Source: a phage. From it: 64,000 nt of DNA. The notes below the pieces were generated by a model. That model saw nothing but the letters and a program-made list of their open reading frames with translations. It ran no database searches and was not told the origin of the DNA. Below are positions 11,436 to 32,314 of the stretch, one piece after another (position 1 is the stretch's first letter; every line of letters starts with the position of its first letter). Location of the stretch: assembly GCA_024975835.1 (NCBI GenBank), contig GCA_024975835.1_4840.1. One strand, 5' to 3'. The position numbers were made by a program, and so were the translations under genes.

Positions 11436-11861
11436 TTATTTAATCTGCAATTTTTCGATCAGCTTCGCAATCAGCTGAATGCGATCTTCTTCTGTGATAC
11501 CCAGCGGCGCAGCCAACAACTTGAGATCGTCAACCCCCAACAGGTTCAGAGTCTCGACTGTGATGTTGGTTTCAATCACAGCCCCGGTTTCAAACGGCTT
11601 GCCGAACTTGTCGCGACCATAACGCTTGAGGGTCGCAGCCAGCCCTGGAAGCTCCTGGAGGAGTTCTTTGGTGCCGTCTTGGTATTCGCACACCCAACCG
11701 TACCCGCCAGCGTAGACGACGCCTCCGTCTCCCCCTGGAGGGATGTTATCGATGGCGCGTTGTAGGTAGGTAGGCAACACACCTTCCTCCTTCGCCTGGA
11801 TGTCATCGACTGGGGCTTCGGTTTTAATTTCAACTTTCTTGACTTCAGGTTTCTTCGCCAT
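11436..11861 (-). CDS. hypothetical protein
   Basis: 141-aa ORF. Confidence 0.45.
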   Translation of the reverse strand: MAKKPEVKKVEIKTEAPVDDIQAKEEGVLPTYLQRAIDNIPPGGDGGVVYAGGYGWVCEYQDGTKELLQELPGLAATLKRYGRDKFGKPFETGAVIETNITVETLNLLGVDDLKLLAAPLGITEEDRIQLIAKLIEKLQIK

Positions 11862-12049
11862 GTTTGGTTCTCCTATAGACTGTTACGTATTTACCACAGC
11901 AATTGCAGCAGTATACGTGCATCGCGTATCCTTCGTCTGTGAAGTCGAAACCACCACAGCGACAGAACAATTTCACGAACTGTTGGTCATGAACTTCACG
12001 GGGAGGGAATTGTTTGTGGGGGTATTCCCTGGTCTCGCCTTCGAACTGA

Positions 12050-12067
12050 AAGGAGGCCGGAGCCTCC
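12050..12067 (-). terminator. stem-loop terminator downstream of the rIIB-like gene
   Basis: GGAGGCCGGAGCCTCC hairpin 20 nt after the stop codon, followed by TTTCAGTT on the minus strand. Confidence 0.45.
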
Positions 12068-12085
12068 TTGATGGATGGGGTTTAG

Positions 12086-13682: not shown

Positions 13683-16439
13683 TTATGCCCTGATAATGGA
13701 ATTTGAAATAACGTCCAAGTAATCCGAAGATTTTTCAATCGGGTTCAGGGCGCTTGGTTTGTAATTCTCTTTCAAGAACCGGACAACACGATGACGCTCG
13801 ATGGTCAATCGGTTTTCCCGCCTTGCTTTCAATGACGGAGTCCTCGATATATCAAACGGTGTAAATCCATGAAACCGCAACACATCCGAAGCGCATTCAA
13901 AGATCTGTAGCATCTGATGTTCTGAACGGAAGATCTTTTCGTCACGCTCGTTGGCGTACAAATTCACGTTAAGAGAATGTATTGTGTCCTGGAAATGGCT
14001 AAATCGACGCTTGTCATTGATTGAAACCGGGGCTTTCGCCAGGCTTTGGTAATGACGTACAGTCTGCTCATCCAAGATATCGTCCACAACTTTCATTAAC
14101 TTGTTGTAACGGCTGACCAATTTGCCATAACGATCGTCTTCAACATCACCAAACGCCTGATGAACCAGATGGCTCCCGTATTTTAATCGATCCGCCCCAA
14201 GGCGCATGCGGCGGTATGATTCCAGTATGCGCTTGGCGCTATCGCGCTCCATCATAGGCTTCACGTTTTCCAACATGATCTTCAGGATTTCATCGATCGG
14301 TATGAAGACCTCTGGGAACTTCTTCATCATTGGCACGGATTTACGACGAGCCAAGAAGATTCGGTTGTGAACGTTCAACATATCGCTGATGTACACTGGC
14401 TTGCCTTCATCGTCGACACTGACTGCGTGCTCATACAGAGATTTACGAATACCCCGCGCCGCCGCAGTCGTCAACGTTCTGTCCATCACCTGATGGATAC
14501 ACGCATGGCCAGACACCTCAATATAGACGATGCGCTCGCCCTTGTTGATGATATCTGAGATCTGGTCGCCCGTTAGTTCTTCATACTGGTATATGTCGAA
14601 GTTGCTGCGCGTGAACGGAAACAGGCCAGGGTCTTTGGTGACCGGGGGCGTGACATACGACAGTTCGTTCATGAACTTGACTTCAGCAGGCTCCAACACC
14701 GCACTCAGCCAATCGACGAACTTGTCGGCGAAGCACAGATAATCAACCGTCGTTTCTTCTTTACCAATCCAAGTTTCAAAGAAATCATAGAGAGCCTGAG
14801 AATTCTTGAACGCAGGGTTGTCCTTAGATTGGTTGCGCTTGGTGACATAGGATGTGTTCGGCTTGGCCACGATGACTATCGTCCCTGTATCTTTCAGCTG
14901 CTTGATCTTCAGGTTACGAGCACGAACACTATCTTCGATCACCACAGTAACATGCTGGCCGCGATCAATCCACTTCTGGATTTCTGAAATGGTCAAATTA
15001 CTGGACTCACCCCAGTCATAGAAGATCTCCATAGAGAACGGCGATGACAGCTCATTGAACGGCGCGGTATGGTCATAATCGCGATCTATCTCAACAGGCA
15101 GCGGGTAACGGTAATATGAATCATGAAAGCGCTTGTCTGCCGGGTATTCCTTTTCAACCATCTTGCGGAACCCACTGCCGAACATTTCACTCAGTTTTAC
15201 CTTCTCCATATACAGGGCAAGAGGACCACGCTTACACGCCAGCTCCAGGTCACGCATCTTTTCTGTCAAGATTGCATTGGCGGTGCCCTTAAACTCCTCA
15301 GAGAGCGTCTCACGCGTGAATTCGTCATATGAAAGGTCTTCACGCGACGGTGGTACGTTCAGCGAGCCAAGTTCGAAGAACGTATAGGACGATGGAAACT
15401 TGCTCATGATGGAAGCAGTGTCCGGGTCCAGCTGGTCCAGGTCAATCGGGTACGACACGCCACCCATTACAGCATAATGGGTGTTCCCCTGACCTTTCGG
15501 CTGGATGTACGTGTTGTTGACCTTGAAATCATAACTGATATCTTCCCAGCTGAAGCGGTATGAAGCGTTCTCAACAATTGGACGTTGTTCAGGGCGCATA
15601 ACACGACCAAGGCGAACCAGTTCATCAGAGAATGCGGAGAAGCGAGCGTTCTTCACCGGGATCTTCACCGTCATGCCGTTGAACTCATCGGTGTCTTCCG
15701 GCTTAGGATCACGGGTTTCAAGATCTTTGGTGATCAGGTCAACAGTCGGGATGCGCTTGGCATTCAGGTACATCAGGAAGCGATGGAGTTTACCGTCCAT
15801 GCGGCTTTCCACAGTGAACGAATCCGATACCGCAAATGGTGATTTGGAGCCAAGACCGAATGCCCCAATCTGATCATCATCTTCTTCCTTCGTACTGTGG
15901 AAGAGAGTGGTATACAACCCAGGCGTACGAATGATTTCACCATCTTCGCGACGGAACACTAGACCACCATTATAGAACGCAGGCACGCCGATGACCTCAG
16001 CTGAGTCAGGGATCTCATCTTCCTTGACCACCATGTTGCCTTCCAGCAACACTTCATCTTCCTGCGCTGGGATAGGCTCGCCAATGATCTTCTCAAGTGG
16101 CAGACCGATGCCGTAATCACGGATTTCCAGCCATGGCTCAAAGTCATCAGGTAGATGCACAACAACCTGCTTACCCTTCGGTGCAAGGTATTTGCTATGG
16201 CGGGCAGGAGGCGGAGTGAGAGGCGCGTAGTGGGACGCCATCACACGGTGCATACGATCACGCATGCCATGGGAGTCGATGGCGTTACAGACGGTTTCGC
16301 GCAGGGCTGCAGCCTCTTTGTAACGATACAATGATGAGAACAGAGTCTCAAACATCTTATCGTTCATCTTCACGTTGAACGCCTGCCCCTGAATGGAAGA
16401 CGACGAGCGGATAAAGTGCTCGGACTTGCGCATTTTCAT
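13683..16439 (-). CDS. rIIA: rIIA-like protein (N-terminal GHKL/Bergerat ATPase fold)
   Basis: N-terminal NAIDSH and IRDYGIGL boxes plus GAFGLGSKSPF glycine box, as in T4 rIIA; 918 aa; adjacent to rIIB-like and topoisomerase genes. Confidence 0.65.
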   Translation of the reverse strand: MKMRKSEHFIRSSSSIQGQAFNVKMNDKMFETLFSSLYRYKEAAALRETVCNAIDSHGMRDRMHRVMASHYAPLTPPPARHSKYLAPKGKQVVVHLPDDFEPWLEIRDYGIGLPLEKIIGEPIPAQEDEVLLEGNMVVKEDEIPDSAEVIGVPAFYNGGLVFRREDGEIIRTPGLYTTLFHSTKEEDDDQIGAFGLGSKSPFAVSDSFTVESRMDGKLHRFLMYLNAKRIPTVDLITKDLETRDPKPEDTDEFNGMTVKIPVKNARFSAFSDELVRLGRVMRPEQRPIVENASYRFSWEDISYDFKVNNTYIQPKGQGNTHYAVMGGVSYPIDLDQLDPDTASIMSKFPSSYTFFELGSLNVPPSREDLSYDEFTRETLSEEFKGTANAILTEKMRDLELACKRGPLALYMEKVKLSEMFGSGFRKMVEKEYPADKRFHDSYYRYPLPVEIDRDYDHTAPFNELSSPFSMEIFYDWGESSNLTISEIQKWIDRGQHVTVVIEDSVRARNLKIKQLKDTGTIVIVAKPNTSYVTKRNQSKDNPAFKNSQALYDFFETWIGKEETTVDYLCFADKFVDWLSAVLEPAEVKFMNELSYVTPPVTKDPGLFPFTRSNFDIYQYEELTGDQISDIINKGERIVYIEVSGHACIHQVMDRTLTTAAARGIRKSLYEHAVSVDDEGKPVYISDMLNVHNRIFLARRKSVPMMKKFPEVFIPIDEILKIMLENVKPMMERDSAKRILESYRRMRLGADRLKYGSHLVHQAFGDVEDDRYGKLVSRYNKLMKVVDDILDEQTVRHYQSLAKAPVSINDKRRFSHFQDTIHSLNVNLYANERDEKIFRSEHQMLQIFECASDVLRFHGFTPFDISRTPSLKARRENRLTIERHRVVRFLKENYKPSALNPIEKSSDYLDVISNSIIRA

Positions 16440-20716: not shown

Positions 20717-20738
20717 AAATCAATCCTTGCAAAAAGAA

Positions 20739-20780
20739 AGGGGAACGGGCTAATATTAACCCATTCCCCTTTATTGAAGA
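20739..20780 (-). promoter_or_regulatory. terminator hairpin overlapping a sigma70-like promoter (TTCTTC-N16-TAATAT)
   Basis: AGGGGAACGGG...CCCATTCCCCT hairpin followed by TTTCTTTTTGC on minus; -35 TTCTTC at 20780..20775, -10 TAATAT at 20758..20753 in the loop; same layout as 17755. Confidence 0.4.
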
Positions 20781-21002: not shown

Positions 21003-22241
21003 TCAGCGTTTCAAGAGTGTCATGAGGTTGACGCTATGTTTGCGCGGCTGCTTGTCCTCAACCTTGCGCACAGGCATCTTCAGGTTCGTACATACCTCGG
21101 ATGGTTCCCAGCGCGTACCCTTTTGCAGGTGCCAGATGTGCAGAGGAACGCCAGTCTCAAAGAACACAGGCATCTTCCACTTCTGGACGCCTGGAACGTG
21201 CCCTGCAGGAGCCTTTTCACACAACAGGGTATCTGGCAGCCAGAGCGAACGGGCTTCCCAGAGCGCTGCGCAGGAGTATTCAGGCCAGACGCGTTCCATG
21301 TAGTCTATCTCATCCCAGGTACGCTCTGCGTCCCACCCGATGTAACGGGTATTCTTCAGTCGGAAGAACTTCTTCAGCCAGCATGCACCGGAGGTTTCAA
21401 AGTTCAGACGGTTGATGAACGTCAGGTGCCCGAACTCAGCCACACAATCCTGGAACGCCTGCTCAAGGTCGGCCTCAAGGATGTCACACTCTTCATCCGT
21501 GATAGGACAACCGTTGATCTTTTTCTTCCCGTGTTTAGTCACCCAATCGTCACGGTTGGACAAGAACGCCGCGCCATTACGGTTGGACTCGCTTCCATCA
21601 CGATCACGCAGCATGAAGCCAGGGACGTCAATGGTGTATTCGTTCCCGAAGACCATGTTCAGGGCTTCCAGGAAGTTCCAGGCGCTCAGGCGACCGAAGT
21701 ATTTCCAGGACATCGCCGTGTCCCACAGCTGGGTGAATTGTTCTGTCTTATCGATGCACACCAACATCCCACGGAAAGCGTCATATTGAGTACGGCCAGC
21801 CAGCCAGTCAATATAGGACTGAACACACGGAATCATCTTGGACTTGCGGTAGCGACAGTCGGTATCGAATCGCATGCGTTCAAAGTTCAGGTTATACCAA
21901 TCAGAGAAGCGCTGCATCTCTTCCTTAGACTGAGGCGGCACAGGGAACTCACTGTAGATTGTCCACGGTCCGACAGCGTTATAGCAACAACCCCACAGGA
22001 ATGCCATCCAGATCTTGCGCTCGACTTTCTGTTCGAGGCTGATGCCTTCAGTGACTTCGATCGCATAGTCCATCAGACGCATCTGCTGGTTGTGCTCTTC
22101 TGTGTAGGACAGCGCCTCCACCCAAGCCTTGAGCAGGTACATGCGATTCTCAGGCTTGCGATAATCAACAGCCAGGTCAATCGGGTACTTCCATTCAGCC
22201 GGAGGCGTATAGCCCGTCGGCATTTTAGATAAATGATGCAT
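21003..22241 (-). CDS. conserved hypothetical protein (412 aa; candidate DNA-modification enzyme)
   Basis: Trp/Cys/Tyr-rich composition; the opposite-strand ORF is Arg/Leu/His-rich; sits with the P-loop kinase and HAD genes. Confidence 0.5.
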   Translation of the reverse strand: MHHLSKMPTGYTPPAEWKYPIDLAVDYRKPENRMYLLKAWVEALSYTEEHNQQMRLMDYAIEVTEGISLEQKVERKIWMAFLWGCCYNAVGPWTIYSEFPVPPQSKEEMQRFSDWYNLNFERMRFDTDCRYRKSKMIPCVQSYIDWLAGRTQYDAFRGMLVCIDKTEQFTQLWDTAMSWKYFGRLSAWNFLEALNMVFGNEYTIDVPGFMLRDRDGSESNRNGAAFLSNRDDWVTKHGKKKINGCPITDEECDILEADLEQAFQDCVAEFGHLTFINRLNFETSGACWLKKFFRLKNTRYIGWDAERTWDEIDYMERVWPEYSCAALWEARSLWLPDTLLCEKAPAGHVPGVQKWKMPVFFETGVPLHIWHLQKGTRWEPSEVCTNLKMPVRKVEDKQPRKHSVNLMTLLKR

Positions 22242-22581
22242 CTTTCGCTTCCTCTTCAGGAGCCAACTGAATGTCTTCTGGTTTCACAAACCCCATCGGA
22301 CGTTCCCACATATCGATGAAGCGGCGGTCGGCGGTCACAAACCAAAGACGGGCTGCAGTGTGGGTCTTACCCGAGATGAACATCTGGGCATTCGTCTGGG
22401 TACGGAACGGAGCCGCCTGCAACCACTTACCGAAGTCTTTGGACGACGGATTGGCATTCAACTGGAACTGAGGGATGACGCAGTTCTTTTCAGGAATCAG
22501 GCGCACGGCAGTAATGTGCTTGGCGTTTCCGGTGTAGTCGATCGCAACAGCCACAGCATCGCGAGGGATTTGAATTTTCAT
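22225..22581 (-). CDS. hypothetical protein
   Basis: 118-aa ORF overlapping neighbours. Confidence 0.45.
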   Translation of the reverse strand: MKIQIPRDAVAVAIDYTGNAKHITAVRLIPEKNCVIPQFQLNANPSSKDFGKWLQAAPFRTQTNAQMFISGKTHTAARLWFVTADRRFIDMWERPMGFVKPEDIQLAPEEEAKDASFI

Positions 22582-22781
22582 TTTGGTTCCTTGAATATTT
22601 TATAGCCAGCAGCGCCGATAGCCATAATCGCGCCGATACAATACAACATGGTCAGGTTCATCTTTTCTGAGGTTGTTAAGTCCAGAGGGGTGAAATGATA
22701 GGCTAGGGCAGTACACATTGAAACGGCTGCCATAACCAGACCAATGAACAACAGATAATTAGACAACCGTTTCATGATCAC
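22578..22781 (-). CDS. small two-helix membrane protein
   Basis: 67-aa ORF with two hydrophobic segments; ATGA overlap with kinase stop. Confidence 0.4.
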   Translation of the reverse strand: MIMKRLSNYLLFIGLVMAAVSMCTALAYHFTPLDLTTSEKMNLTMLYCIGAIMAIGAAGYKIFKEPK

Positions 22782-23695
22782 CCCTTCTTCATCAGGTCAA
22801 GGAGAGAGCGCGACGCTGCCTTCGTTGCTTCTGGCTGGGCGCTCGCCTTGGTTTTAGTTTTGGATGCCTTCTGCGGCTTCTCAGGGACTCTGTGCGCCAA
22901 AGGATCCTGGCCGCCGATTTCACGAGTCATCGGATTGGTTTCACAGTAGGCGTAGAAGTCTTTGGTGTCCATGTTAACTTCACGCAGTTCGGACCGTATC
23001 TGATGACAAATCGCATTACCCACAACCCACAGCGGGGCGTCGAACGGTAGTACCGCCAACTCGGACTGCTGTTTGGTCGTGAACTCCTGGGTGTTGGCGT
23101 CCGGTGATTTATACAGGATATCCTGTCCGCTGTAATCATCAACAGCCACAGTGAAGCCCAGCGCCAGCATTTCGGCCTTCGACTTCTCAAACTCCTTGTA
23201 GTAAGATTCGTTGCGCGACCAGCCGGAGTTCCCTGCTTCTTTACCAGATCGACCACGGATACGAGCATCGTACTGATAGCGGTCGGGGTACGCAAAGTAC
23301 AGCAGCGCCAATGATTCAATCGGATAGTTCTTGAACATCCATTCAGGACGCCATTTGTCCGATAGCATGAGGGGTTCACCCTCGCACACCAGAGTGTATC
23401 CCTGAACCAACCAGCACTTGATTAGATCACGAGCAATATCGCCTGAGCCTGTAGCAGCATGGATTGCATCCATTGAAGTCCAGGAAGCCAGGCCGGATTT
23501 GTTAGACACGGTGTACTGTCCAACGAAGATTAACTTCAGCTCTCCGAACTTCAAGCCAAACGGGCGAGTCTTGTCACCAACGGTGTAGGTCAGTTCGGTA
23601 GGCTCCAGCTTAGTGCGCAGCCATTCGATGAACTGGACCACTCTCGTACCCTTGCCCGTGGCCGAGGTGCCTTTCACTACGATAATTTTTGCCAT
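22778..23695 (-). CDS. P-loop kinase (candidate 5-hydroxymethyl-dU DNA kinase type)
   Basis: N-terminal Walker A IIVVKGTSATGKGTR; 305 aa; Lys-rich C-terminal tail; identity beyond P-loop kinase not established. Confidence 0.55.
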   Translation of the reverse strand: MAKIIVVKGTSATGKGTRVVQFIEWLRTKLEPTELTYTVGDKTRPFGLKFGELKLIFVGQYTVSNKSGLASWTSMDAIHAATGSGDIARDLIKCWLVQGYTLVCEGEPLMLSDKWRPEWMFKNYPIESLALLYFAYPDRYQYDARIRGRSGKEAGNSGWSRNESYYKEFEKSKAEMLALGFTVAVDDYSGQDILYKSPDANTQEFTTKQQSELAVLPFDAPLWVVGNAICHQIRSELREVNMDTKDFYAYCETNPMTREIGGQDPLAHRVPEKPQKASKTKTKASAQPEATKAASRSLLDLMKKG

Positions 23696-24000
23696 TACAC
23701 AGCATCCTCAATACGCCAGCTCACGCCGCCCAGCCAAGGTGCCCAGAACACAGCAACCTGTGGGCGGCCATTCTCTTCAAACTTCACTTTATACTGGTCG
23801 TCGAAGTTATAGAAGATTTCATCCGCTTCAGAGCGCTGGCCGATCTTCACCAGTACATCATGAAGAGCCTTGGCTGCACCGATAGGAGTCGGAGTCTCCT
23901 GCTGACGAATGAAGTTGTTCACATGGTTAATCACGCCATCCATGTCGCTATCACCGAAACGCTCGTCGGGGATTTCCCCGAACTTGGATTGTTCTTGCAC
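23695..24000 (-). CDS. hypothetical protein
   Basis: 101-aa ORF, TAATG overlap with kinase start. Confidence 0.45.
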   Translation of the reverse strand: MQEQSKFGEIPDERFGDSDMDGVINHVNNFIRQQETPTPIGAAKALHDVLVKIGQRSEADEIFYNFDDQYKVKFEENGRPQVAVFWAPWLGGVSWRIEDAV

Positions 24001-24009
24001 GATGTCCTC

Positions 24010-24789
24010 CTATCGGACGTATTGATAATGACTAATCAGGCGGTTCACCACTTCGACAATATTGCGGTTCAGGAAGTCGAAGTGATTCTGGCCTTCTACT
24101 GGTTTAATATAAAGCATGTCTTCCGAATTCGAAAGATCCAGTTTTTCATAATTGCCCTGAGGAACAAAGATGACAAAGATGTTGTTCAGGCCACACGGCT
24201 CGACATACTTCGGATTGTCATCAATCAGGACATCGCCAGCCAGCAGATGCTTTTCGTCGGTGCTGACAAACCCGTTGAAGATACCAGGGAACTTGTCATA
24301 GACAAACTGACGCTTGCTGCGCTCGTGTTCCGGCTCGCACTTCGACACCGCGATGAATTCCACATTGTCGAAATCTTCAAGCAAGATATCCTTCAGATTT
24401 ACCAGGAACTCGTAAGCGCCGGGGAGCGGGTTCATCTTGGCGTACAGGTCAGGGCGACGCCACCAATCCATAGGATCGTTACCGCTTGGCACACGTTGTT
24501 TGTGCATCCCCAATTGGACTTCATGGTATAGCCACGCCGGATGCGCACGTTCACGCATCAGAATAGCCAGGTCGCCAGCATGGGACATATAACACTCTTT
24601 GGTGATCGGCTGGAACTGGTATGACTTATGTTCCCCCGTAGCGATAGCAGCGGCGGCGATGTTCTCTTCGTTGAACCACTGCACCCAAGGGGAGAGGCTG
24701 TCGACCAACGTCAGGTCAACATCCACGAGGACGCGATACAGGCCACCGACCTTTGATTTCATATCATAGATACAAACCAGGTTGTTCAT
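24010..24789 (-). CDS. HAD-superfamily hydrolase (5'(3')-deoxyribonucleotidase-like)
   Basis: N-terminal LVDVDLTLVDS (DxDxT HAD motif I); 259 aa. Confidence 0.5.
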   Translation of the reverse strand: MNNLVCIYDMKSKVGGLYRVLVDVDLTLVDSLSPWVQWFNEENIAAAAIATGEHKSYQFQPITKECYMSHAGDLAILMRERAHPAWLYHEVQLGMHKQRVPSGNDPMDWWRRPDLYAKMNPLPGAYEFLVNLKDILLEDFDNVEFIAVSKCEPEHERSKRQFVYDKFPGIFNGFVSTDEKHLLAGDVLIDDNPKYVEPCGLNNIFVIFVPQGNYEKLDLSNSEDMLYIKPVEGQNHFDFLNRNIVEVVNRLISHYQYVR

Positions 24790-25127
24790 TTGTCTTCCTC
24801 AACTTTATCGTAGCCTGTAGCAACACACTGTTCTTCGGTACAATCTGCATACAGAACGACGGAGGCCTGCTTCACGTAGGTGATGCAGTGGTAAGTTTCG
24901 TCTTCCTGGATGGAATCGTCATAGTTGCAGACAGTTTGGAGCGGACCCGGAGTAGTGTTGTCCAGTGCTGCATGTGCCTTAATGGTGTCTTCCATCTTGG
25001 ACACGGCCTGCTCATTGGTGAACGTCGGCGCGTCAAGGTCTACAGTAGACGCAACGTCCAGAAGGGTGGAACACGCAGTGGTAGAGAAAGCCAGAGCACA
25101 CACCAGAAGAATCTTATTGAGTTTCAT
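24786..25127 (-). CDS. secreted protein or lipoprotein (4 Cys)
   Basis: Signal-peptide-like N-terminus KILLVCALAFSTTAC; start moved to ATG with AGGTGA site; strong promoter upstream. Confidence 0.5.
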   Translation of the reverse strand: MKLNKILLVCALAFSTTACSTLLDVASTVDLDAPTFTNEQAVSKMEDTIKAHAALDNTTPGPLQTVCNYDDSIQEDETYHCITYVKQASVVLYADCTEEQCVATGYDKVEEDK

Positions 25128-25157
25128 TTCAATCACCTGTTTGTCAAAGGGTTAACA

Positions 25158-25193
25158 GGGGGAATTATATCCCCCTTTGGTTTATTGAATCAA
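25158..25193 (-). promoter_or_regulatory. sigma70-like promoter (TTGATT-N18-TATAAT) overlapping a GGGGG/CCCCC hairpin
   Basis: Minus-strand -35 TTGATT at 25193..25188 and consensus -10 TATAAT at 25169..25164 in the hairpin loop; follows the DNA polymerase stop. Confidence 0.45.
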
Positions 25194-28189
25194 CCTTTCT
25201 TCTTTTGCATCATGGCAAGAAGGTTCACACGGCGCTTGTGTGACCAGCCGACCACGTCGAGGATAGACTGAATCGGATCAATGAAGGACTTCTCAAAGGC
25301 CGCCTGATAATCCACCCATTTGCCCAGACCAAGCTCCTCAGGGAAGAACTCAGGATATGCGAAGTAATTCTGGCCGAATGGGTTGCCTGGCTTCAACAAC
25401 ACCATCTGTACCTTATCACCCGACTCGATCATCGGCAGGCCGAGATCTTCGTTCTTCTCAACCAGACGGTTGTAACCCACACAAGCCTTTGCAGCAAAAT
25501 GAGCACCAGAGATGAACGATCCGTCAGCAGCCACACACTTCTCTATGTCGGACACGCCTGACGCCTTGGCGATATCGTCTACAGAGAGTTTCATGTACTC
25601 CTCTTTGTACTGGGAGATGAGCGCCTGTACTTCCTCTTCGGTGCCGAGTAGGATCTTCTCATAGCACTTGACAAGGCGCTCACGACACCATTCCGGCGTG
25701 GTGGACTTGCGGGCTTCCAGACCTTTGAACTTGATCTTCGGCTTCTCGTACTTGATACCCTCACTGTCGTACACGGCCATGGCATACATCTTCTTGGCTC
25801 GCCAGACAGCGGCTGACGCAATGACCTCACGCTCCCACACCATGCGCTGTTCAAATCCGTTCATGGTGTTACATAGAAGCTGTGCCCACTCATTGGTCTT
25901 CGGCTGGTAGTTGTCTTTGATCCATTGGTCGATATTATCAACCATAGCATGATGGTCAGTAACATCAGGCCACAACTGCTTGACAAGACGCTCAATGCAG
26001 ATGTAGTTGGAGTCGGTATCCCCTGCGATGACGAAGTCCTGACCTGTTGTACCACACAGCTTGTTCAGATAGTCATCAGTGTAACGCTTGTTCCACTTGT
26101 TGATCAGCTGACCGGATGTGGTGATGGCTTCGGCAATGTTGAGGTTGAAGTACTCTTTGAACCAGACGTTTGAGATCGCGCCATAACCTGCGTTCATCAA
26201 GATCTTCAGACCTTGCTGAAGGGTATCTTGAGCAACGCCCAGATCTTCCCACTTCTTCATCACTTCGGTCAGTGCATCAAGATCAACGTTCTTGTGCTCT
26301 TCATACCACTCTGGGTCATAGTAGCGAGACTTCATGGCAGACTCAAGATGGAAGTCGCCCTTCGACATCTCTTTACACCAGCCAGCCCACTGCTCATACT
26401 TCAGACCCTTGGCCTTCTCTACTTTACGGTCGCTGTAGATACCACGCATGATTTCAGACAGGAACGACATCTTCTCGTTGCTGAAGAACTGAACGTTCGG
26501 CGTGAAGGACACGTTGTAGAGGCGCAGGGTTTCAAAGTGGAACTCACCCAGGGCAACCAACTCATCAACAACCTGCAGGCGTTCGTCAACCGCACGCAAC
26601 AGCTTGTCGTGAAGGGCTTTCATCAACCGACGTTTGTGCATCGGCGTTGCCATGTTATTCATCTGAGCAGCCAGCTCTTCACACATAGCCTCAATAATCT
26701 CGCGGCGCTGGTGTTTGTCGCCAACGATAGTCTCTGGACCGAGGTTGTACTGCTGAATGATGTGAGGATACAGGGAGTTCAAATCTTCCGAGAAGACCCA
26801 GAAGTAGATTCCTGGTGTCACATCCATGACGTATGCACCCTCAAAGTCGGTCGGACCATCGTATACACGCTGGATCTTAGGCACTATCCCCTTCTCGTAC
26901 AGGCGATAGTAGCACATGGCCAGCCACGGAGCCACAGTGCCCAGACCGTCTTCATAGTTGGACTTGGTGCGGTAGGCCAGGACGAACATCAGCTGGAGCA
27001 GGCGCAGCTTCTGTTCAAGTCGCCATACCAGCTTAACGTCTTTGATACCATATCGGGTGTGTTTGCAGTAGTCGTTGAAGTACAGATCAAAGAGCGACTT
27101 GCTCTCACTGTAGTCCATCTTCTTCTCACCCAGCTCACAATACGCAATCCAGTCAAGAGAGTAGCGTTCACGGGTGGTGTACGTGTGTTTCTTGTAGATC
27201 TGCATATAATCGAGCATAGGGCAACCCACGAACTGATACGTCGTGATATCGCCCTTCTTATCGCGAATGATACGCTTCTTAATGATACCCCAAGGACTGA
27301 GGCGCGACGTTTCAGCCTCTCCCAGAACCTGATTCATGCGCTCAACAAGATAAGGGCTATCAAACGTCTCAATGTTCCAGCCAGTCCATCCGTCGAACTG
27401 ACGCTCCGACCAGAAGTCCAGGAAAGAGCGCAGCAGGTCTTGTTCGGTGGTGAACTCCTGATAAACAACCTCCAGGCCGCCGATCTCTTTGTCTTCTGCG
27501 TCATAGGTGAATTTGTTACGATCTTTGGCGCACGGCATACCCCAGACCATGAACTTGTTGGTCGCCATATCCTGAAGCTGGATCAGGGTAATGGGGAACG
27601 CCGCATTCATGTCTTGGGTGATCTTGCCGTTGCTGTCAATGATAGGGAACTGATCAGTGACGTTGTTGCTGATGAAAGAACCAGGGAAGTGCTCACGGAC
27701 AAAATCATGGTTGGCCAGCACTTGTTTATGGAAGCGGCGAATGCGCGCCTCATTCCCTTTGAACGTCTGCTGCTCAATGGTTGGGTGAGGGAATGGACCT
27801 TTGGTCATCTTTCCGTCTTTCCACCCGGCGGAGAACACTTCGATATCGAGGTTAGCAATATGGATGTTGGAATAATCCGGCTCAATCTTTCCAGGAAAGC
27901 TATGGGCGATGAACTGGTATGCATAATCGGTCTGCCCGTAAATGGCAGCACCCTGGACTTCCTTGTACTCTTCAAGATAGTTGTCAGCGTCACGCATGGA
28001 AGGGAACTGCTTGGCTACCAGGGGTTCATTGAGAAGGCCAACCTTTTCAACATTTGAATAGTCAGCCGTGGGTAAATAGAGAGTGGGTTCGAATTTCTTT
28101 TTCAACAGACGGCGATTACCCATGTCATCTGCAATTCGAATCAACAGGTCATTGCCCCTGCGGGCAACGTTCGTATAGAAAACGGTCAT
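25190..28189 (-). CDS. 43: family B DNA polymerase (T4 gp43-like)
   Basis: 999-aa ORF with DLNSLYP (motif A), KILMNAGYG (motif B) and IAGDTDS (motif C); N-terminal exonuclease-region length. Confidence 0.9.
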   Translation of the reverse strand: MTVFYTNVARRGNDLLIRIADDMGNRRLLKKKFEPTLYLPTADYSNVEKVGLLNEPLVAKQFPSMRDADNYLEEYKEVQGAAIYGQTDYAYQFIAHSFPGKIEPDYSNIHIANLDIEVFSAGWKDGKMTKGPFPHPTIEQQTFKGNEARIRRFHKQVLANHDFVREHFPGSFISNNVTDQFPIIDSNGKITQDMNAAFPITLIQLQDMATNKFMVWGMPCAKDRNKFTYDAEDKEIGGLEVVYQEFTTEQDLLRSFLDFWSERQFDGWTGWNIETFDSPYLVERMNQVLGEAETSRLSPWGIIKKRIIRDKKGDITTYQFVGCPMLDYMQIYKKHTYTTRERYSLDWIAYCELGEKKMDYSESKSLFDLYFNDYCKHTRYGIKDVKLVWRLEQKLRLLQLMFVLAYRTKSNYEDGLGTVAPWLAMCYYRLYEKGIVPKIQRVYDGPTDFEGAYVMDVTPGIYFWVFSEDLNSLYPHIIQQYNLGPETIVGDKHQRREIIEAMCEELAAQMNNMATPMHKRRLMKALHDKLLRAVDERLQVVDELVALGEFHFETLRLYNVSFTPNVQFFSNEKMSFLSEIMRGIYSDRKVEKAKGLKYEQWAGWCKEMSKGDFHLESAMKSRYYDPEWYEEHKNVDLDALTEVMKKWEDLGVAQDTLQQGLKILMNAGYGAISNVWFKEYFNLNIAEAITTSGQLINKWNKRYTDDYLNKLCGTTGQDFVIAGDTDSNYICIERLVKQLWPDVTDHHAMVDNIDQWIKDNYQPKTNEWAQLLCNTMNGFEQRMVWEREVIASAAVWRAKKMYAMAVYDSEGIKYEKPKIKFKGLEARKSTTPEWCRERLVKCYEKILLGTEEEVQALISQYKEEYMKLSVDDIAKASGVSDIEKCVAADGSFISGAHFAAKACVGYNRLVEKNEDLGLPMIESGDKVQMVLLKPGNPFGQNYFAYPEFFPEELGLGKWVDYQAAFEKSFIDPIQSILDVVGWSHKRRVNLLAMMQKKKG

Positions 28190-28268
28190 GTAATTCTCCA
28201 GGTTATCCGTGCCGTTAGCACGTGGGCATATTTAACCATAGAGCCATTCATTGACCAAGGAGTTTAAT

Positions 28269-28841
28269 ATGGCAATCCCCCTCGTTGGTATGATCCCAGG
28301 GGCGCTCAAGCAACTCTGGAACCTCGGGACTGATTTGATCCAATATAAGCGGGAAGTTGTACAGGCCAAACACGACGTCAAGCTGGAGGCCATCAAGTCC
28401 TCCTCAGATTGGGAGCTGTCTAAGATCACCGAAGTCGGCGGATCTTGGAAAGATGAATTCTGGACTATCGTGTTGGCCATACCCGCCATCCTCGTCATGA
28501 CTGCTCCGGTTGTGGAACTGATTCTGTTCCCTGGTGAGTATCATAAAGGGGATTTCATCAAAGCAGTAATCGGTGGCCTTCAGGCACTAGATACCGCACC
28601 TGAATGGTATACCTATTCGTTATTGACAGCAATTAGTGCATCATTCGGTATCAAAGGCTACAACCACTACAAAAGCAACAGGCGAAAAGCCCAAGCTATG
28701 GATGCTCTCAAGCAATTTGGGGTTCGGGTCGTACAGAAAGATCCCACTGTTGTTACTCAGTCGGGTGCTCCCGATCTTGAGTCTGCTCCCCCAGCTGGGT
28801 CTACTGCGACCTCTGGTGCGTGGCCTGATCTGAAGAAATAA
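28269..28841 (+). CDS. membrane protein (holin-like topology?)
   Basis: Start at ATG 28269 with AAGGAG site; central hydrophobic segments; divergent from DNA polymerase gene. Confidence 0.5.
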   Translation: MAIPLVGMIPGALKQLWNLGTDLIQYKREVVQAKHDVKLEAIKSSSDWELSKITEVGGSWKDEFWTIVLAIPAILVMTAPVVELILFPGEYHKGDFIKAVIGGLQALDTAPEWYTYSLLTAISASFGIKGYNHYKSNRRKAQAMDALKQFGVRVVQKDPTVVTQSGAPDLESAPPAGSTATSGAWPDLKK

Positions 28842-28845
28842 GTTC

Positions 28846-28865
28846 AAGGGGAGGAAACTCCCCTT
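28846..28865 (+). terminator. rho-independent terminator
   Basis: AAGGGGAGGAAACTCCCCTT hairpin followed by TCTTTTGG. Confidence 0.5.
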
Positions 28866-28883
28866 TCTTTTGGTGTTTAGGGA

Positions 28884-29096
28884 ATGAATGTGGTAAACAA
28901 GAGATTGCTCGTCACCCAAGGCGGGGCGACGATAGTGCGCGGAAGGATCTATGAACAAACACAGCTGGGTGATCACAAGACGCGCCTGACTGTTAAGGCT
29001 CCAGATGGTGGTTGGCCGACAAAGGTAATTGTCCCTGACGGTCTCATAGAACGAGGGTCGGCGGTGTATAAAGGAGCAGAGTTCAAAATTTATTAA
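28884..29096 (+). CDS. hypothetical protein
   Basis: 70-aa ORF after a GGGAATGAATG start context. Confidence 0.4.
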   Translation: MNVVNKRLLVTQGGATIVRGRIYEQTQLGDHKTRLTVKAPDGGWPTKVIVPDGLIERGSAVYKGAEFKIY

Positions 29097-29191
29097 AATA
29101 TTTATTGAATAAAGTTTACTTCTTCAATAACTGGCGTATACTTCTAATTGTAGTACGAACAAACAACAATCTGAAGAGAAGGAAATACATC

Positions 29192-29749
29192 ATGGCAATC
29201 GAAATTATCGCTCAATCCAAATCTGGTAAAACTGTAATGTACGGCACTGAAGAAGGCCGCGCAATCACCACTCTGGGCACAATTGACGGTTCCAACCCAG
29301 TGAAAGGCGGTCGCTACCTGGTTGAATACGGTTCACACCTGCTGATGGTAAGCAAAGTCGATGGTCGTGAAATCATGATTCCCCGCAAAGAGTACTTCGA
29401 CTCGCGCATTGAAGCCATGAACTTCTTCCTTTTCCAGGAACGTCACGAACTGTTCGTTGAAGCGAAAGACGCAGGCCTGGACGATGCGACTGCCGAACTG
29501 ATTGCCGAAGGTAAAATGTCCCTCGAAGAAGCTCTGGGTGACATGGATTGCGATGCTGAAGCCCATTACATCGAATATTCCGCTTATCAGAATGAATGCG
29601 AAGACGATCCTGAAGATGACGGCTTCGACCCTGACCTTCACGGTGGCGAGGATGACAATACTCCTTCCCTGGAAGTGATCATGGCAGGCGGCCAGGCCGC
29701 TTGGGAGTGGCAGAACGAAAAGAACGCCTGGCTGGATTCCCACCTTTAA
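29192..29749 (+). CDS. acidic hypothetical protein
   Basis: Start at ATG 29192 with AAGGAAAT site; strongly acidic C-terminal half. Confidence 0.5.
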   Translation: MAIEIIAQSKSGKTVMYGTEEGRAITTLGTIDGSNPVKGGRYLVEYGSHLLMVSKVDGREIMIPRKEYFDSRIEAMNFFLFQERHELFVEAKDAGLDDATAELIAEGKMSLEEALGDMDCDAEAHYIEYSAYQNECEDDPEDDGFDPDLHGGEDDNTPSLEVIMAGGQAAWEWQNEKNAWLDSHL

Positions 29750-29765
29750 TGTGAAGAAATAAAGA

Positions 29766-29784
29766 AAGGGGCTTAACGCCCCTT
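29766..29784. terminator. bidirectional terminator between convergent genes
   Basis: GGGGCTTAACGCCCC hairpin with T-tracts on both strands between the 29749 and 29788 gene ends. Confidence 0.55.
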
Positions 29785-29787
29785 TTC

Positions 29788-30246
29788 TTATTCTTCCCAG
29801 AAGTCTTCGTCGTCCCCGACAGCAGCCAGTTCCGTGTCCAGTTCTTCATCGGTAAACGGTGGCAGCACCCCGTTCTGAATCAGATAATCCATCTCATCAT
29901 CTTCCAGCTGCAGGTCGGTGGCAATATACAGCGCTCCGCTGCCCTCTTCGTCCGTCTCGATACTGTACGAAGTGTATGGCACCCCATTCACTGTAATGAT
30001 GATAGACGTTGGATCCTTGGGATCTACGTGCGCCTCGAACGGCACGCCATCAATCGGTGCGTCTTCCAGGAAGGTGGCAAGTGCTACGGCGGCGCGGACA
30101 ACATCAGTGCCTTCAACGCCTGCATAGATCTCTTCCGCGCCTGTCTCTTCACGATCAAACAGCTCAATCGTGATACCGTCTTGAACACCAGTCCATACAG
30201 GGATGTCATTAGTGTATTCTGATTCAAACAATTTGGAGGTTGGCAT
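29788..30246 (-). CDS. highly acidic hypothetical protein
   Basis: 152-aa ORF, Asp/Glu-rich throughout. Confidence 0.5.
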   Translation of the reverse strand: MPTSKLFESEYTNDIPVWTGVQDGITIELFDREETGAEEIYAGVEGTDVVRAAVALATFLEDAPIDGVPFEAHVDPKDPTSIIITVNGVPYTSYSIETDEEGSGALYIATDLQLEDDEMDYLIQNGVLPPFTDEELDTELAAVGDDEDFWEE

Positions 30247-30390
30247 GTTAGGTTCCTCAGTGGGTTAGCCATATGGGGTATTTAGGCTTCCCGCTTGGCG
30301 ATGCCTGGTTTGTACAGGACGCCTCTCGGAATATTGGAGGAAGGTTTTCATAGATACCCCACACTGGTTGTATGGGGTATTTAGGATGGA

Positions 30391-31584
30391 TCAGGAAGGG
30401 GTGAAGTCGTTCACAGGAACTGTTTCAGGGATAGCCAGCTCAGGGCATGCTGCCTTCATTGGCTCAATGTACGGCTTACTACCCACAATCCAGAACAGAG
30501 TGTTCTCATTGAGCAACTCTGGCTTGTTCTGCTGGATCCAGGTCATGACCTTGCCTTCATAGCGAGGATGCAACTCAATATCGCCCCACTGATATTCCAT
30601 CAGGTCATTATAACGAACCCAATTAGTGGTATGAAGATCCCAATGGTGTACCTCAAAGCGAGGAAGCACGACCTCTGGCTCTTCCTTCTGCCTGATACCA
30701 CTTAGGAGGCCAGCCAGCGAAACGCTCTTAGAGGCATGCTGAAGCTCCTTCTTGCCGTGTACATAGTCTGGGTTGTCGTGATAGCGACGGGTAAAGTCGA
30801 CAATGTGCGGCAGATTGGCATGTTTGCCGATGATGCGCAGGCGGCTCTCGATAAAGTCAAGGCGGTTAGGACCGATGCCGATTAGATACACACGCTTCAG
30901 ATTAGGCTTCGGATGCATTGCCAGCCCGGTCAGGATGCTTGTGCAAGAGTTGCACGATCCGGCTGGGATGATCAGGTCAGTAATGTGATCAGGAATGTTG
31001 GCAACCTGCTCGCCACCCAACATATGGAACCCAGCAATGCGCTCAGGGGAGTGGGCTGTATGGTCGAGGGTGATACCATACTCCAGATAATACGCCTTTG
31101 GATTCTGTTGTTCGATCAACTTCTTACAGCGCGGCTGGATGGTGCTGTTGTAACCCGAGCCGACGAAGTTGAACTCACTACCAAACCAGGCTGACATTGC
31201 CACCATTTCATGGTTCATACAGGTGGTGGGTTTGGTCGCGCCGAGCACAGTAGTTGTCTTGCCGCCGAAGTGCCGAGAGACTGCTGTCGCCATAGGGGAC
31301 TGCGGACTACCAACGACAGTACCATGGATGATGTCAGGGGAGCCTCCGGCCTTGAGGTGCTCAACCATCAACCAGATGGCCTGGCGGAGTTTGCTGCCAT
31401 TGATGCCCTGCTTGGCGTTGGCATAGTTAGACAGCGGCGCAAAATAATCTTCACGCTTGAACCAGACCTGCTGGTTGGTTTCGGGATTGACGACAAGTTC
31501 GCACGGGGTGTGCTTGTAGAGATAGTCTTCCCAGTGAACCAGATTGCGGTCGAGGGAAAGGGTATCGAAAATGGTCTTGTTCAT
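30391..31584 (-). CDS. PLP-dependent enzyme (fold-type II-like; candidate base-modification enzyme)
   Basis: About 400 aa with Gly-rich loops (IIPAGSCNSCTSILTGL) resembling tryptophan-synthase-beta/ACC-deaminase-type PLP enzymes; start moved to ATG with AGGAGAAA site. Confidence 0.5.
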   Translation of the reverse strand: MNKTIFDTLSLDRNLVHWEDYLYKHTPCELVVNPETNQQVWFKREDYFAPLSNYANAKQGINGSKLRQAIWLMVEHLKAGGSPDIIHGTVVGSPQSPMATAVSRHFGGKTTTVLGATKPTTCMNHEMVAMSAWFGSEFNFVGSGYNSTIQPRCKKLIEQQNPKAYYLEYGITLDHTAHSPERIAGFHMLGGEQVANIPDHITDLIIPAGSCNSCTSILTGLAMHPKPNLKRVYLIGIGPNRLDFIESRLRIIGKHANLPHIVDFTRRYHDNPDYVHGKKELQHASKSVSLAGLLSGIRQKEEPEVVLPRFEVHHWDLHTTNWVRYNDLMEYQWGDIELHPRYEGKVMTWIQQNKPELLNENTLFWIVGSKPYIEPMKAACPELAIPETVPVNDFTPS

Positions 31585-31654
31585 TCTATTTTCTCCTGTA
31601 GACATTGGTTTATCATAGTGTATCTACAGGAGTATAGAAAAGGAGAATCTCGGC

Positions 31655-32314
31655 TTATTTCTTGAATAAACGAAGGAACTTCATCATGTTTTCCATGAAA
31701 GTCGGCTTCTTGACCTTTTGTTTTACCGGAGCGCCCTGATCATTCAGAACACGACTGGCCGGAGGAGTAGGTGGTGTCGGTGCTTTCGTTTCACAGGCCG
31801 GAACGATGTTCACGTCATGATGAGAAGACTCAGCTGTAGTGTTAACAACATTGTTCTCCTGGACGACAGGCTTAACGAGATTCTTTTCATACTCGCGAGC
31901 AATCGCCTGGTACTTCCGATTCTCCGCGTCAAAGTCCATAGAAACGACTTTACGACGGCGGCGCGTCGCGCTCTCATCACCATAGAAATCGTATCCGTTC
32001 TTGACCAGCCAGTGTACAGCTTGGACAAATGAATGGAAGATCATGAACGGCTGGCCATTACCCTCTTCAGCAGCGGTGATGCCGGAGTAGCCCATGAGCA
32101 CAACCTGACCCTTTACGTCGAGGTCAAAAGATGTACATTCACCGTGCTGGTTCAGATCACGCGGAGCCAGCTGGGAATCACGATGGATATAATTCGGCGA
32201 CAAAAACTCATTCAGAGTTCGTTTGTTGCCTTTGTATTCAAACAGGCGAATACAGATGGGAGTCGTCAGTTCATGCCATTCGGCATCGTTGACCCAGATA
32301 GAAACATTACGCAT
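31655..32314 (-). CDS. hypothetical protein
   Basis: 219-aa ORF with GAGGA site; Pro/Thr-rich linker; promoter-like element upstream. Confidence 0.5.
   Translation of the reverse strand: MRNVSIWVNDAEWHELTTPICIRLFEYKGNKRTLNEFLSPNYIHRDSQLAPRDLNQHGECTSFDLDVKGQVVLMGYSGITAAEEGNGQPFMIFHSFVQAVHWLVKNGYDFYGDESATRRRRKVVSMDFDAENRKYQAIAREYEKNLVKPVVQENNVVNTTAESSHHDVNIVPACETKAPTPPTPPASRVLNDQGAPVKQKVKKPTFMENMMKFLRLFKK

Follow-up and report, generated by a model that had tools for sequence, protein, structure and literature searches.

The segment between positions 21003 and 24789 of the window (the whole 64,000-nucleotide stretch of phage DNA analysed here) raises the question of whether three minus-strand open reading frames (ORFs) lying in it encode enzymes of thymidine hypermodification, and of what the HAD protein among them does. 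The ORFs (21003-22241, 412 aa; 22778-23695, 305 aa; 24010-24789, 259 aa) are as a sequence-only reading had described them: the coordinates, the Trp/Cys-rich composition of the 412-aa protein (20 W, 4.9%; 12 C, 2.9%), the P-loop of the 305-aa protein and the HAD motif of the 259-aa protein were all confirmed. They are genuine genes and not chance ORFs: their products match Pfam families above the curated cut-offs, and homologues were found in approximately 280-380 phage records. The source of the window is an Ackermannviridae phage, Aglimvirinae/Agtrevirus-like, among the ViI-like phages; the DNA of the region is 94-96% identical to that of the Escherichia phages AV101, LHE287, A221 and RPN242 (Ackermannviridae), and the thymidine-hypermodifying lineage that had been claimed is the right one. 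Taken as a whole, the locus is best explained, with good confidence, by a ViI-type pathway making 5-(2-aminoethoxy)methyl-dU (5-NeOmdU) on the DNA, together with a HAD phosphatase of the nucleotide pool.

The three genes belong to a block whose order (DNA polymerase, lipoprotein, HAD, DUF7254, kinase, two small ORFs, amino acid:DNA transferase or AADT) is that of the family and matches both Salmonella phage ViI and the distant Vibrio phage D507. All features described here lie on the minus strand. The array genes are co-directional and close-packed (overlaps of 1-17 nt, otherwise 9 nt spacing) immediately downstream of the gene for a 999-aa DNA polymerase (25190..28189; equivalent to ViI orf236), the array starting 53 nt after the polymerase stop codon. 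The first gene after the polymerase gene (24786..25136; DUF7292, PF23964, E 9e-54; ViI orf237 equivalent) encodes a small protein, probably a lipoprotein, with the N-terminus MKLNKILLVCALAFSTTAC and annotated 'putative lipoprotein' in relatives. Three further small conserved genes separate the three ORFs: the 101-aa DUF7254 protein (23695..24000; PF23912, E 6.4e-51; phrog_3911; ViI orf240 equivalent), in the interval between HAD and kinase genes that also holds a small protein-coding gene in ViI and in Vibrio phage D507 (in D507 the likeness is one of position); a 67-aa hydrophobic protein (22578..22781; phrog_4514, E 8e-32; ViI orf244 equivalent), called 'putative membrane protein' in related phages, whose gene overlaps each neighbour by 4 nt; and a 118-aa protein (22225..22581; phrog_4163, E 2.5e-64; equivalent to ViI orf245, in the same position), whose gene overlaps the AADT start by 17 nt. 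The 118-aa protein had no Pfam match, and its gene is not present between the kinase and AADT genes of Vibrio phage D507.

The 305-aa protein (22778..23695) is assigned by its sequence as a 5-hydroxymethyl-dU (5-hmdU) DNA kinase of clade 2: in the Pfam scan, residues 1-304 matched HMUD2 (PF18747) over profile positions 1-298 of 298 (E 7.7e-158), and the Walker A motif is GTSATGKG at residues 9-16. Its orthologue ViI gp243 is 84% identical, syntenic, of nearly the same length (304 aa) and has the same P-loop, the window kinase diverging chiefly in the C-terminal third (residues ~195-245 and the tail). ViI gp243 phosphorylates 5-hmdU within DNA in vitro, giving 5-PmdU and releasing ADP (PMC8989533). 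A SegD-like homing endonuclease gene adjoins the kinase gene in several close relatives, whereas none does so in the window.

The 412-aa protein (21003..22241) matched ADDT (PF18724; E 4.5e-60) in the Pfam scan and is an AADT (aGPT-Pplase clade 2), orthologous to ViI gp247, with 89% identity over the full length (412 versus 411 aa); substitutions are mainly at residues 78-115, 150-170 and in the C-terminal tail. Residues E282, T283, C287 and K290 were invariant in a 20-sequence alignment including M6 gp51 and PaMx11 gp46, where C287 aligns with Cys247 of PaMx11 gp46. Glu282 and Cys287 are the predicted catalytic residues; the sequence around them is identical in gp247, and alanine in place of the equivalent Cys or Glu kills the activity of gp247 and of M6 gp51. 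The AF2 model (pLDDT 86) had as its only significant PDB neighbours in Foldseek the PaMx11 gp46/PUGT structures 8z2m and 8z2n (probability 1.00, target TM-score 0.59-0.60). PaMx11 gp46/PUGT and M6 gp51 are glycine:DNA transferases with the same Glu...Cys catalytic motif, but they are only ~20% identical to the 412-aa protein, with no phmmer match between them, and the window protein, extended at both termini, is ~120 residues longer. These two enzymes use glycine via its amine and not serine via its hydroxyl, whereas gp247 is a demonstrated serine:DNA transferase that moves serine onto 5-PmdU in vitro (PMC8989533). By analogy with gp247, serine is assumed to be the donor of the 412-aa enzyme.

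A third enzyme of the same pathway, a PLP-dependent decarboxylase, is encoded outside the segment (30391..31605). Its product is 92% identical over 394 residues to its orthologue ViI gp226, which was demonstrated to convert O-SerT to 5-NeOmdU (PMC8989533); relative to gp226, the window ORF lacks 20 N-terminal residues, and its Lys72 aligns with gp226 Lys92, the proposed aldimine lysine. The Pfam PALP match (30.8 bits) lies below the cut-off of 35, and the protein falls in phrog_3650. From the 84-92% identity, the conserved synteny and the conserved catalytic residues we infer that the ViI activities carry over to this phage. 5-hmdU would enter the DNA by replication; the 305-aa enzyme would transfer the ATP gamma-phosphate to its 5-hydroxymethyl group, making 5-PmdU; the 412-aa enzyme would flip the base out and attack C6 with Cys287, the phosphate would depart to leave an exocyclic methylene, and the side-chain hydroxyl of free L-serine would add to it, giving O-serinyl-thymidine; the PLP enzyme would then decarboxylate this to 5-NeOmdU. 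The product and the serine specificity come from ViI and CBA120 (genus Kuttervirus); carried over by analogy to a phage of the Aglimvirinae, both may be expected here.

The proposals that the kinase fits a hypermodification pathway and that the 412-aa protein is its 'pyrophosphorylase-like' transferase are borne out by the HMUD2 and ADDT matches and by the orthology to gp243 and gp247. The statement that both were 'unassigned by sequence alone' is not, since both have dedicated Pfam families and 84-89% identity to gp243/gp247 (PMC8989533). The two window enzymes are near-identical copies of proven ViI 5-NeOmdU enzymes and as such already known; a hypermodification cluster with a HAD gene is ordinary for the phage family and nothing new.

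The 259-aa protein (24010..24789), 76% identical to ViI Vi01_194, belongs, as a divergent member, to the NT5C family of 5'(3')-deoxyribonucleotidases; all the catalytic motifs are present, and the cap is large. Its match to NT5C (PF06941; 35.8 bits where the cut-off is 24.8, E 9.5e-9) spans only residues 109-198; a family profile search gathered 862 representatives, and NT5C was found by Pfam in 9 of the 10 sampled. Motif I reads D23-V-D25-L-T27, and the residues invariant in the family alignment (D23, D25, T27, W110, Y116, K159, K180, D190, D191) include counterparts of human mdN D41/D43 (D23/D25), W96 (W110), F102 (Y116), K143 (K159), K165 (K180) and D175/D176 (D190/D191). Human mdN (mitochondrial), human cdN (cytosolic) and 3bwv (S. 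epidermidis) were the PDB sequence matches and also the top Foldseek matches of the AF2 model (pLDDT 88). They have in common with the window protein the HAD core, motifs I-IV and the aromatic base-binding residues, but identity is 16-19%, target TM-scores are just 0.6-0.76, and the window protein is ~60 residues longer. Its cap (approximately residues 30-125, between motifs I and II, with a beta-hairpin at 88-101) is much larger than, and unlike, that of mdN. Specificity is set by the cap.

Two phage proteins bear on the substrate. PBS1 Dtm (A0A223LEB8), from a Bacillus phage, is a demonstrated dTMP phosphatase, a HAD protein of similar length (241 aa) with the same motif order, and a DNA polymerase gene stands immediately upstream of its own, as is the case for the window array. 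Its authors place Dtm in PF06941; in our Pfam scan it was below the NT5C threshold, and it had no significant direct similarity to the window protein (hhalign E 0.045, hmmsearch E 4.3). PBS1 swaps T for U and not for a 5-hmdU derivative. PhiW-14 gp18 (C9DFZ0, 'nucleotidase'), from a Delftia phage that likewise hypermodifies thymidine via 5-hmdU, is a clear homologue, matching the family profile (E 1.7e-31) and the window protein (Foldseek E 2.5e-11, target TM-score 0.77), but it is 201 aa with a shorter cap, and its gene is ~13 kb away from the polymerase-kinase block and not within it.

We lean towards a HAD protein that takes no part in the DNA chemistry and dephosphorylates dTMP, perhaps dUMP, of the nucleotide pool. 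It would be a Mg-dependent phosphatase with Asp23 as nucleophile. Once it had turned dTMP (perhaps dUMP) into nucleoside, the draining of the dTTP pool could not be reversed, and 5-hmdUTP would be incorporated more readily. Elsewhere the HD-type dTMPase of DSS3_VP1 fills the role of the PBS1 dTMP phosphatase, and in M6 and PaMx11 an HD hydrolase gene adjoins the dUMP hydroxymethylase gene. Approximately 60% of the thymidine in ViI DNA is unmodified, so it is not established for the family that dTTP is kept wholly out of the pool. The sequence-only reading had offered two roles for the HAD enzyme, and the 'nucleotide-pool editor' is favoured over the 'uncharacterised pathway step' because of the NT5C family, the large cap and the in vitro rebuilding of the ViI pathway to 5-NeOmdU without this protein (PMC5889632, PMC8989533). 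That reading is thus partly supported, correct for two proteins and half correct for the third. As a caveat on the pool proposal, a nucleotidase hydrolysing dUMP would use up the substrate of dUMP hydroxymethylase.

A possible but rather unlikely alternative is that the HAD protein is a nucleotidase acting on dNMPs in general, in the service of salvage or of balanced pools; it might, for instance, recycle what the breakdown of host DNA yields. It would then have no part in thymidine replacement and would stand beside the kinase by mere inherited gene order. NT5C-like proteins are common across phages, and distant HAD relatives, the nearest outside ones (31-32% identity) included, occupy T4-like replication modules without hypermodification genes, so this family is not specific to thymidine replacement. 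The co-occurrence of HAD and AADT genes is moreover lineage-wide and thus not phylogenetically independent. Against a general role, the characterised members (human mdN and cdN, PBS1 Dtm) favour dTMP and dUMP, the HAD gene keeps its place beside those for the kinase and AADT in enterobacterial and Vibrio members of the group alike, and the hypermodifier PhiW-14 has a homologue.

An undescribed step on the polymer is improbable: a 5-PmdU DNA phosphatase, which would reverse or pattern the phosphorylation, or a helper in reversion of 5-hmdU to thymidine, for which there is no known route in such phages. The HAD gene does lie inside the modification array, coupled to it by overlapping or close-set genes; the existence of two kinases and of two aGPT-Pplase paralogues points to chemistry beyond the reconstituted route, and HAD phosphatases of DNA ends exist, such as the phosphatase domain of T4 Pnkp. 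However, capped HAD enzymes act on small molecules and capless ones on macromolecules, and in the model motifs I and II are separated by a large cap; the base-stacking W110 and Y116 fit the mononucleotide pocket of mdN, and the reconstitution succeeded with no HAD protein. Very improbable is a phosphoserine phosphatase-like enzyme providing L-serine to the neighbouring transferase: that transferase consumes free serine and phosphoserine phosphatases are HAD superfamily members, but sequence and fold group the protein with NT5C deoxyribonucleotidases and not with SerB-type enzymes, serine comes from the host, and the in vitro work required just free serine. A guanylate or polynucleotide kinase (RefSeq records and phrog_4409 read 'guanylate kinase') paired with a pyrophosphorylase acting on a pyrophosphorylated base (some records still read 'alpha-glutamyl/putrescinyl thymine pyrophosphorylase clade 2') can practically be dismissed as legacy annotation, given the full-length HMUD2 match, the 84% identity to gp243, a kinase that acts on 5-hmdU in DNA with ADP release, and the carrying of serine to 5-PmdU by gp247; the kinase was not found to group with polynucleotide kinases, and the family of the 412-aa protein is not an unrelated one.

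At the edges of the array, a sigma-70-like match (25164..25193; TTGATT, 18 nt, TATAAT) lying after the polymerase stop and ahead of the first array gene is only suggestive of a promoter, since such sites are no more numerous in the region than expected from shuffled sequence. At the downstream end, past the AADT gene and a 55-aa ORF, a terminator-like hairpin (20737..20772; 16-bp stem, then a T run) may mark the end of the transcription unit.

The three open reading frames that the sequence-only reading had proposed as thymidine-hypermodification enzymes, namely a 412-aa protein (21003-22241; here AADT), a 305-aa kinase (22778-23695) and a 259-aa HAD protein (24010-24789), are all in the ORF list of the window with exactly these boundaries, on the minus strand. 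The description given of them holds as well: AADT contains 4.9% Trp and 2.9% Cys, the kinase has a P-loop and the HAD protein has a motif I (D23-V-D25-L-T27). They belong to a co-directional array on the minus strand which begins 53 nt past the stop codon of a gene encoding a 999-aa DNA polymerase (25190-28189, minus strand), and which comprises the genes for a DUF7292 lipoprotein-like protein (24786-25136), the HAD, a DUF7254 protein (23695-24000), the kinase, a 67-aa membrane protein (22578-22781), a 118-aa protein (22225-22581) and AADT; the junctions inside the array are overlaps of 1-17 nt or a spacing of 9 nt. A sigma-70-like site upstream of the array (promoter scan; 25193-25164, minus strand) and a strong terminator-like hairpin (terminator scan; 20772-20737, minus strand), 3' of the 55-aa ORF that comes after it, are only suggestive of its boundaries, since promoter- and terminator-like sites in the region were not above the shuffled-sequence frequency.

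The DNA of this region is 94-96% identical to the Escherichia phages AV101, LHE287, A221 and vB_EcoM-RPN242, the last of which is classified in the Ackermannviridae, Aglimvirinae; it matches 283 phage records, whose hosts are nearly all Enterobacterales. The gene order is identical in the Salmonella phage ViI (NC_015296): pol, orf237, orf239, orf240, orf243, orf244, orf245, orf247. The Vibrio phage D507 retains the linkage between the polymerase, HAD, DUF7254, kinase and AADT genes, although its AADT is only 49% identical; a linkage of this kind may reflect no more than inherited gene order.

The kinase matched the Pfam family HMUD2 (PF18747) with 524.8 bits (cut-off 25; E 7.7e-158), residues 1-304 aligning to positions 1-298 of the 298 in the profile. 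It is 84% identical to ViI gp243, whose neighbouring genes are alike, and its Walker A motif (GTSATGKG, residues 9-16) corresponds to GTSGTGKG in gp243. In Lee et al. 2021 gp243 appears among the 5-hmdU DNA kinases (PMC8989533), and on 5-hmdU DNA it yields the same 418-u nucleotide (5-PmdU) as the kinase of another thymidine-hypermodifying phage, M6 (PMC8989533). The window kinase is by homology a clade 2 5-hmdU DNA kinase, with a predicted ATP-dependent activity carried over from gp243. The end-to-end HMUD2 match and the identity to gp243 bear out its proposed place among the hypermodification enzymes; a grouping with polynucleotide or repair kinases, named beforehand as the contrary outcome, was checked and the protein fell in HMUD2 instead. 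A phmmer search of the kinase against PDB sequences returned nothing, even at E 10. The name 'guanylate kinase' (RefSeq, PHROGs) was discarded as a legacy label, as the protein matches HMUD2 and gp243.

Labels are also misleading in other phages: 'terminase small subunit' is wrongly attached to gp37, the 5-hmdU DNA kinase of the thymidine-hypermodifying phage PhiW-14, and to the kinases of M6 and PaMx11. The PhiW-14 kinase gene lies just downstream of the polymerase gene and is separated from it by a single gene, for a small membrane protein (28001-32132), a placement which echoes the Ackermannviridae layout.

AADT matched Pfam ADDT (PF18724, formerly aGPT-Pplase clade 2) over residues 49-292 (203.7 bits, cut-off 26.2; E 4.5e-60), and is 89% identical to ViI gp247. 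Purified gp247 moves L-serine onto 5-PmdU DNA, generating O-serinyl-thymidine (PMC8989533); a conserved Cys and a nearby Glu are essential to its activity. In an alignment of 20 sequences (19-89% identity, including M6 gp51 and PaMx11 gp46), Glu282, Thr283, Cys287 and Lys290 of AADT were invariant, and Cys287 paired with Cys247 of PaMx11 gp46, the catalytic residue of that enzyme (PMC11472151). A four-sequence MAFFT alignment had paired the catalytic Cys with C341; this pairing was discarded because the 20-sequence alignment disagrees with it and the Pfam domain stops at residue 292.

The AlphaFold (AF2) model of AADT (pLDDT 86) has as PDB neighbours in Foldseek 8z2m and 8z2n (PaMx11 gp46/PUGT; probability 1.00, TM-score on target 0.59-0.60), the next match having a probability of 0.04; the model thus shares the all-helical fold of this solved family member. 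Pairwise BLASTP between AADT and PaMx11 gp46 was not significant, and phmmer against PDB sequences gave nothing, even at E 1, so that the structure model was required to link AADT with the gp46 structure. Together with the ADDT match and the identity to gp247, these neighbours confirm the 412-aa protein as the transferase of the pathway. Its donor would be L-serine, attached via the side-chain oxygen, as judged from the 89% identity to gp247.

An orthologue of the PLP decarboxylase of ViI, gp226 (O-SerT to 5-NeOmdU), is also encoded in the window (30391-31605, minus strand). It shares 92% identity with gp226, its Lys72 pairs with the proposed aldimine Lys92, and it scored 30.8 bits against Pfam PALP fold-type II (cut-off 35); no NCBIfam model matches any of the four enzymes. 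Five ViI proteins jointly reconstitute 5-NeOmdU synthesis (PMC5889632), and at least three of the five, the ones searched for, are encoded in the window; the other two are gp67 (kinase clade 1) and gp160 (the aGPT-Pplase clade 1 paralogue). In ViI, gp160 adjoins orf161, a MazG-like pyrophosphatase gene (ViI 87-90 kb; 87432-89588), whose product is a candidate dTTPase/dUTPase; from how far the window reaches along the ViI map, the gp160/orf161 region probably lies beyond it.

Activity and mechanism have been published for the enzymes to which the kinase, transferase and decarboxylase are orthologous, so the view that the first two were unassigned by sequence alone does not stand in the face of the HMUD2 and ADDT matches. 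The finding is already known, because in addition to these characterised ViI orthologues there are some correctly named records of close relatives (in RPN242, 'alpha-glutamyl/putrescinyl thymine pyrophosphorylase clade 2', 'P-loop nucleotide kinase 2' and '5'(3')-deoxyribonucleotidase') and near-identical deposited proteins (AADT, 98.8% identical to a protein of phage YX22; HAD, 99.6% identical to one of phage vB_CECAV_050). The gain is in annotation: in most related GenBank records the genes are labelled 'hypothetical protein' or 'guanylate kinase', and these wrong or empty labels can give way to names that have an experimental basis, namely 5-hmdU DNA kinase, serine:DNA transferase and O-SerT decarboxylase. 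The DNA of this phage is predicted to contain 5-NeOmdU, a base that blocks many restriction enzymes and that bears on cloning, sequencing and phage-therapy work.

Of the three proteins, only the HAD has no orthologue that has been characterised; its ViI counterpart, Vi01_194 (76% identical), is itself uncharacterised. It matched Pfam NT5C (PF06941) over residues 109-198 only (35.8 bits, cut-off 24.8) and the PHROG 5'-3' deoxyribonucleotidase (E 6e-5). Against PDB sequences, phmmer retrieved the deoxyribonucleotidase-like protein 3bwv of S. epidermidis (E 0.002), followed by the human mitochondrial (mdN) and cytosolic (cdN) 5'(3')-deoxyribonucleotidases. In the phmmer alignments, D41/D43, W96, F102, K143, K165 and D175/D176 of mdN correspond to D23/D25, W110, Y116, K159, K180 and D190/D191 of the HAD, which provide motifs I (D23/D25/T27), III (K180, and K159) and IV (D190/D191). 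D23, D25, T27, W110, Y116, K159, K180, D190 and D191 were invariant in 25 relatives with identities down to 32%; S149, which swaps with Thr among the 25 sequences, appears from its strand position to be motif II.

The AF2 model of the HAD (pLDDT 88) points to the same family, since its top 12 PDB matches in Foldseek are mdN, cdN and 3bwv (E 1e-7 to 2e-6). It predicts a Rossmannoid core and a large cap between motifs I and II (about residues 30-125) holding several helices and a beta-hairpin (88-101); the cap, the part that sets specificity, could not be aligned to mdN. When 1.84 billion representatives (50% clustering) were searched with the family profile, 862 relatives were obtained at E <= 0.001. 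Only three of the best 150 of these are end-to-end long forms, all of the Ackermannviridae type, the others being mostly 170-230 residues long; nine of the ten sampled relatives have a Pfam NT5C domain. Given these NT5C sequence and fold matches and the rarity of full-length forms among its relatives, the HAD represents a large-cap branch, specific to this lineage, within the deoxyribonucleotidase family. A clear homologue is PhiW-14 gp18 (E 1.7e-31 against the family profile, Foldseek E 2.5e-11). The record counts of the HAD and AADT per host genus are nearly identical; this co-occurrence was dropped as independent support for a functional link, being lineage-wide inheritance.

The sequence-only reading had left the HAD as either a pathway step or a nucleotide-pool editor, and the family and the cap move the balance toward the second: we consider it somewhat probable that the HAD is a phosphatase of dTMP, perhaps also of dUMP, in the nucleotide pool. 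This substrate is favoured because the characterised NT5C members act on dTMP and dUMP (human mdN, cdN and the dTMP phosphatase of the Bacillus phage PBS1; PMC12697855). A role in the pool is favoured because the removal of dT nucleotides is established in the pre-replicative pathway of thymidine-replacing phages, in which both dTTPase and dTMPase activities have been reported (PMC8989533, PMC13458397), and because unrelated hypermodifiers have a homologue (PhiW-14 gp18) or analogues of the HAD. The latter are found in M6 and PaMx11, where a gene for an HD-domain hydrolase comes directly after the dUMP hydroxymethylase ('thymidylate synthase') gene (M6 gp59, 15039-15674, and PaMx11 gp52, 13735-14331, of the retrieved stretches); the dTMPase of roseophage DSS3_VP1 is an HD hydrolase, and by analogy gp59 and gp52 are candidate YfbR-type dTMPases. 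A search of the papers available found none connecting 5-NeOmdU with a nucleotidase.

The PBS1 enzyme (Dtm) was traced to PBS1 gene 39 through a search with the N-terminal peptide that the published primer encodes. Its authors place it in PF06941 (PMC12697855); in our Pfam scan it scored below NT5C. There was no significant homology between the HAD and Dtm by hhalign (E 0.045, probability 1.2%) or hmmsearch --max (E 4.3), and consequently a function common to both would be analogy within the superfamily, not orthology. Gene 39 (34536-35261 of the retrieved stretch) is annotated 'hypothetical protein' and lies directly downstream of the DNA polymerase I gene (gene 40, 35341-37266), the same placement as that of the HAD gene in the window.

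The strongest competitor, possible if clearly less probable than a dTMP phosphatase, is that the HAD is a generic dNMP nucleotidase. The nearest HAD relatives outside its own family occur in T4-like replication modules lacking hypermodification genes, as this would have it, and the linkage to the kinase and AADT genes kept into D507 may be explained by inherited order; set against it are the preference of the characterised NT5C members for dTMP and dUMP and the homologue in PhiW-14. Rather unlikely, in our estimate, is that the large-cap form is not a generic deoxyribonucleotidase and has a hypermodification-linked substrate preference bearing on the origin of unmodified T. In one version the HAD would be strictly dTMP-selective, sparing dUMP and 5-hmdUMP; in another it would work on phosphorylated 5-hmdU species. 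In the HAD superfamily, capped enzymes act on small molecules and capless enzymes on macromolecules. Since the HAD carries a cap, a substrate on DNA is disfavoured, and the pool is favoured over a step on DNA because 5-NeOmdU was reconstituted in vitro without a HAD protein (PMC5889632, PMC8989533); the pathway-step half of the earlier proposal is accordingly improbable. That the HAD is a phosphoserine phosphatase is the least credible of all, its matches being to deoxyribonucleotidases.

If the HAD is indeed the dTMPase of the family, the pre-replicative half of the Ackermannviridae pathway would be complete, with a bearing on the source of unmodified thymidine in these genomes. About 60% of the T in ViI DNA is unmodified, which counts as a caveat to a dTMPase role; were the HAD to empty the dT pool, this fraction would have to arise anew on the DNA, out of 5-hmdU, which would give a direct experimental handle on the long-standing question of the conversion of 5-hmdU to thymidine.

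Several further features of the array were observed. A perfect hairpin (GGGGGA-TATAAT-TCCCCC, 25157-25176) occupies part of the 53 nt that separate the polymerase gene from the array; it overlaps the -10-like hexamer of the sigma-70-like site and might serve in regulation or RNA stability. The N-terminus of the DUF7292 protein, MKLNKILLVCALAFSTTAC, resembles the signal peptide of a lipoprotein, including a lipobox-like Cys; translation probably begins at the ATG at 25127, rather than at the GTG (25136) chosen by the ORF finder. Two antisense ORFs on the plus strand, 21036-22232 (398 aa, facing AADT) and 23689-24531 (280 aa, facing HAD/DUF7254), are probably shadow ORFs, as the homology evidence is all on the minus strand. 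A SegD-like homing endonuclease gene is inserted between the kinase and DUF7254 genes in AV101, RPN242 (7039-7725 of the retrieved stretch), Ag3, P46FS4 and Vibrio phage D507; it is absent from the window, where these two genes overlap by 1 nt at 23695, and it is a presence/absence polymorphism within the modification array. The polymerase, a single 999-aa ORF in the window, is divided in RPN242 into two CDS with an intervening ORF (9220-13402 of the retrieved stretch), probably by a mobile intron or an endonuclease insertion.
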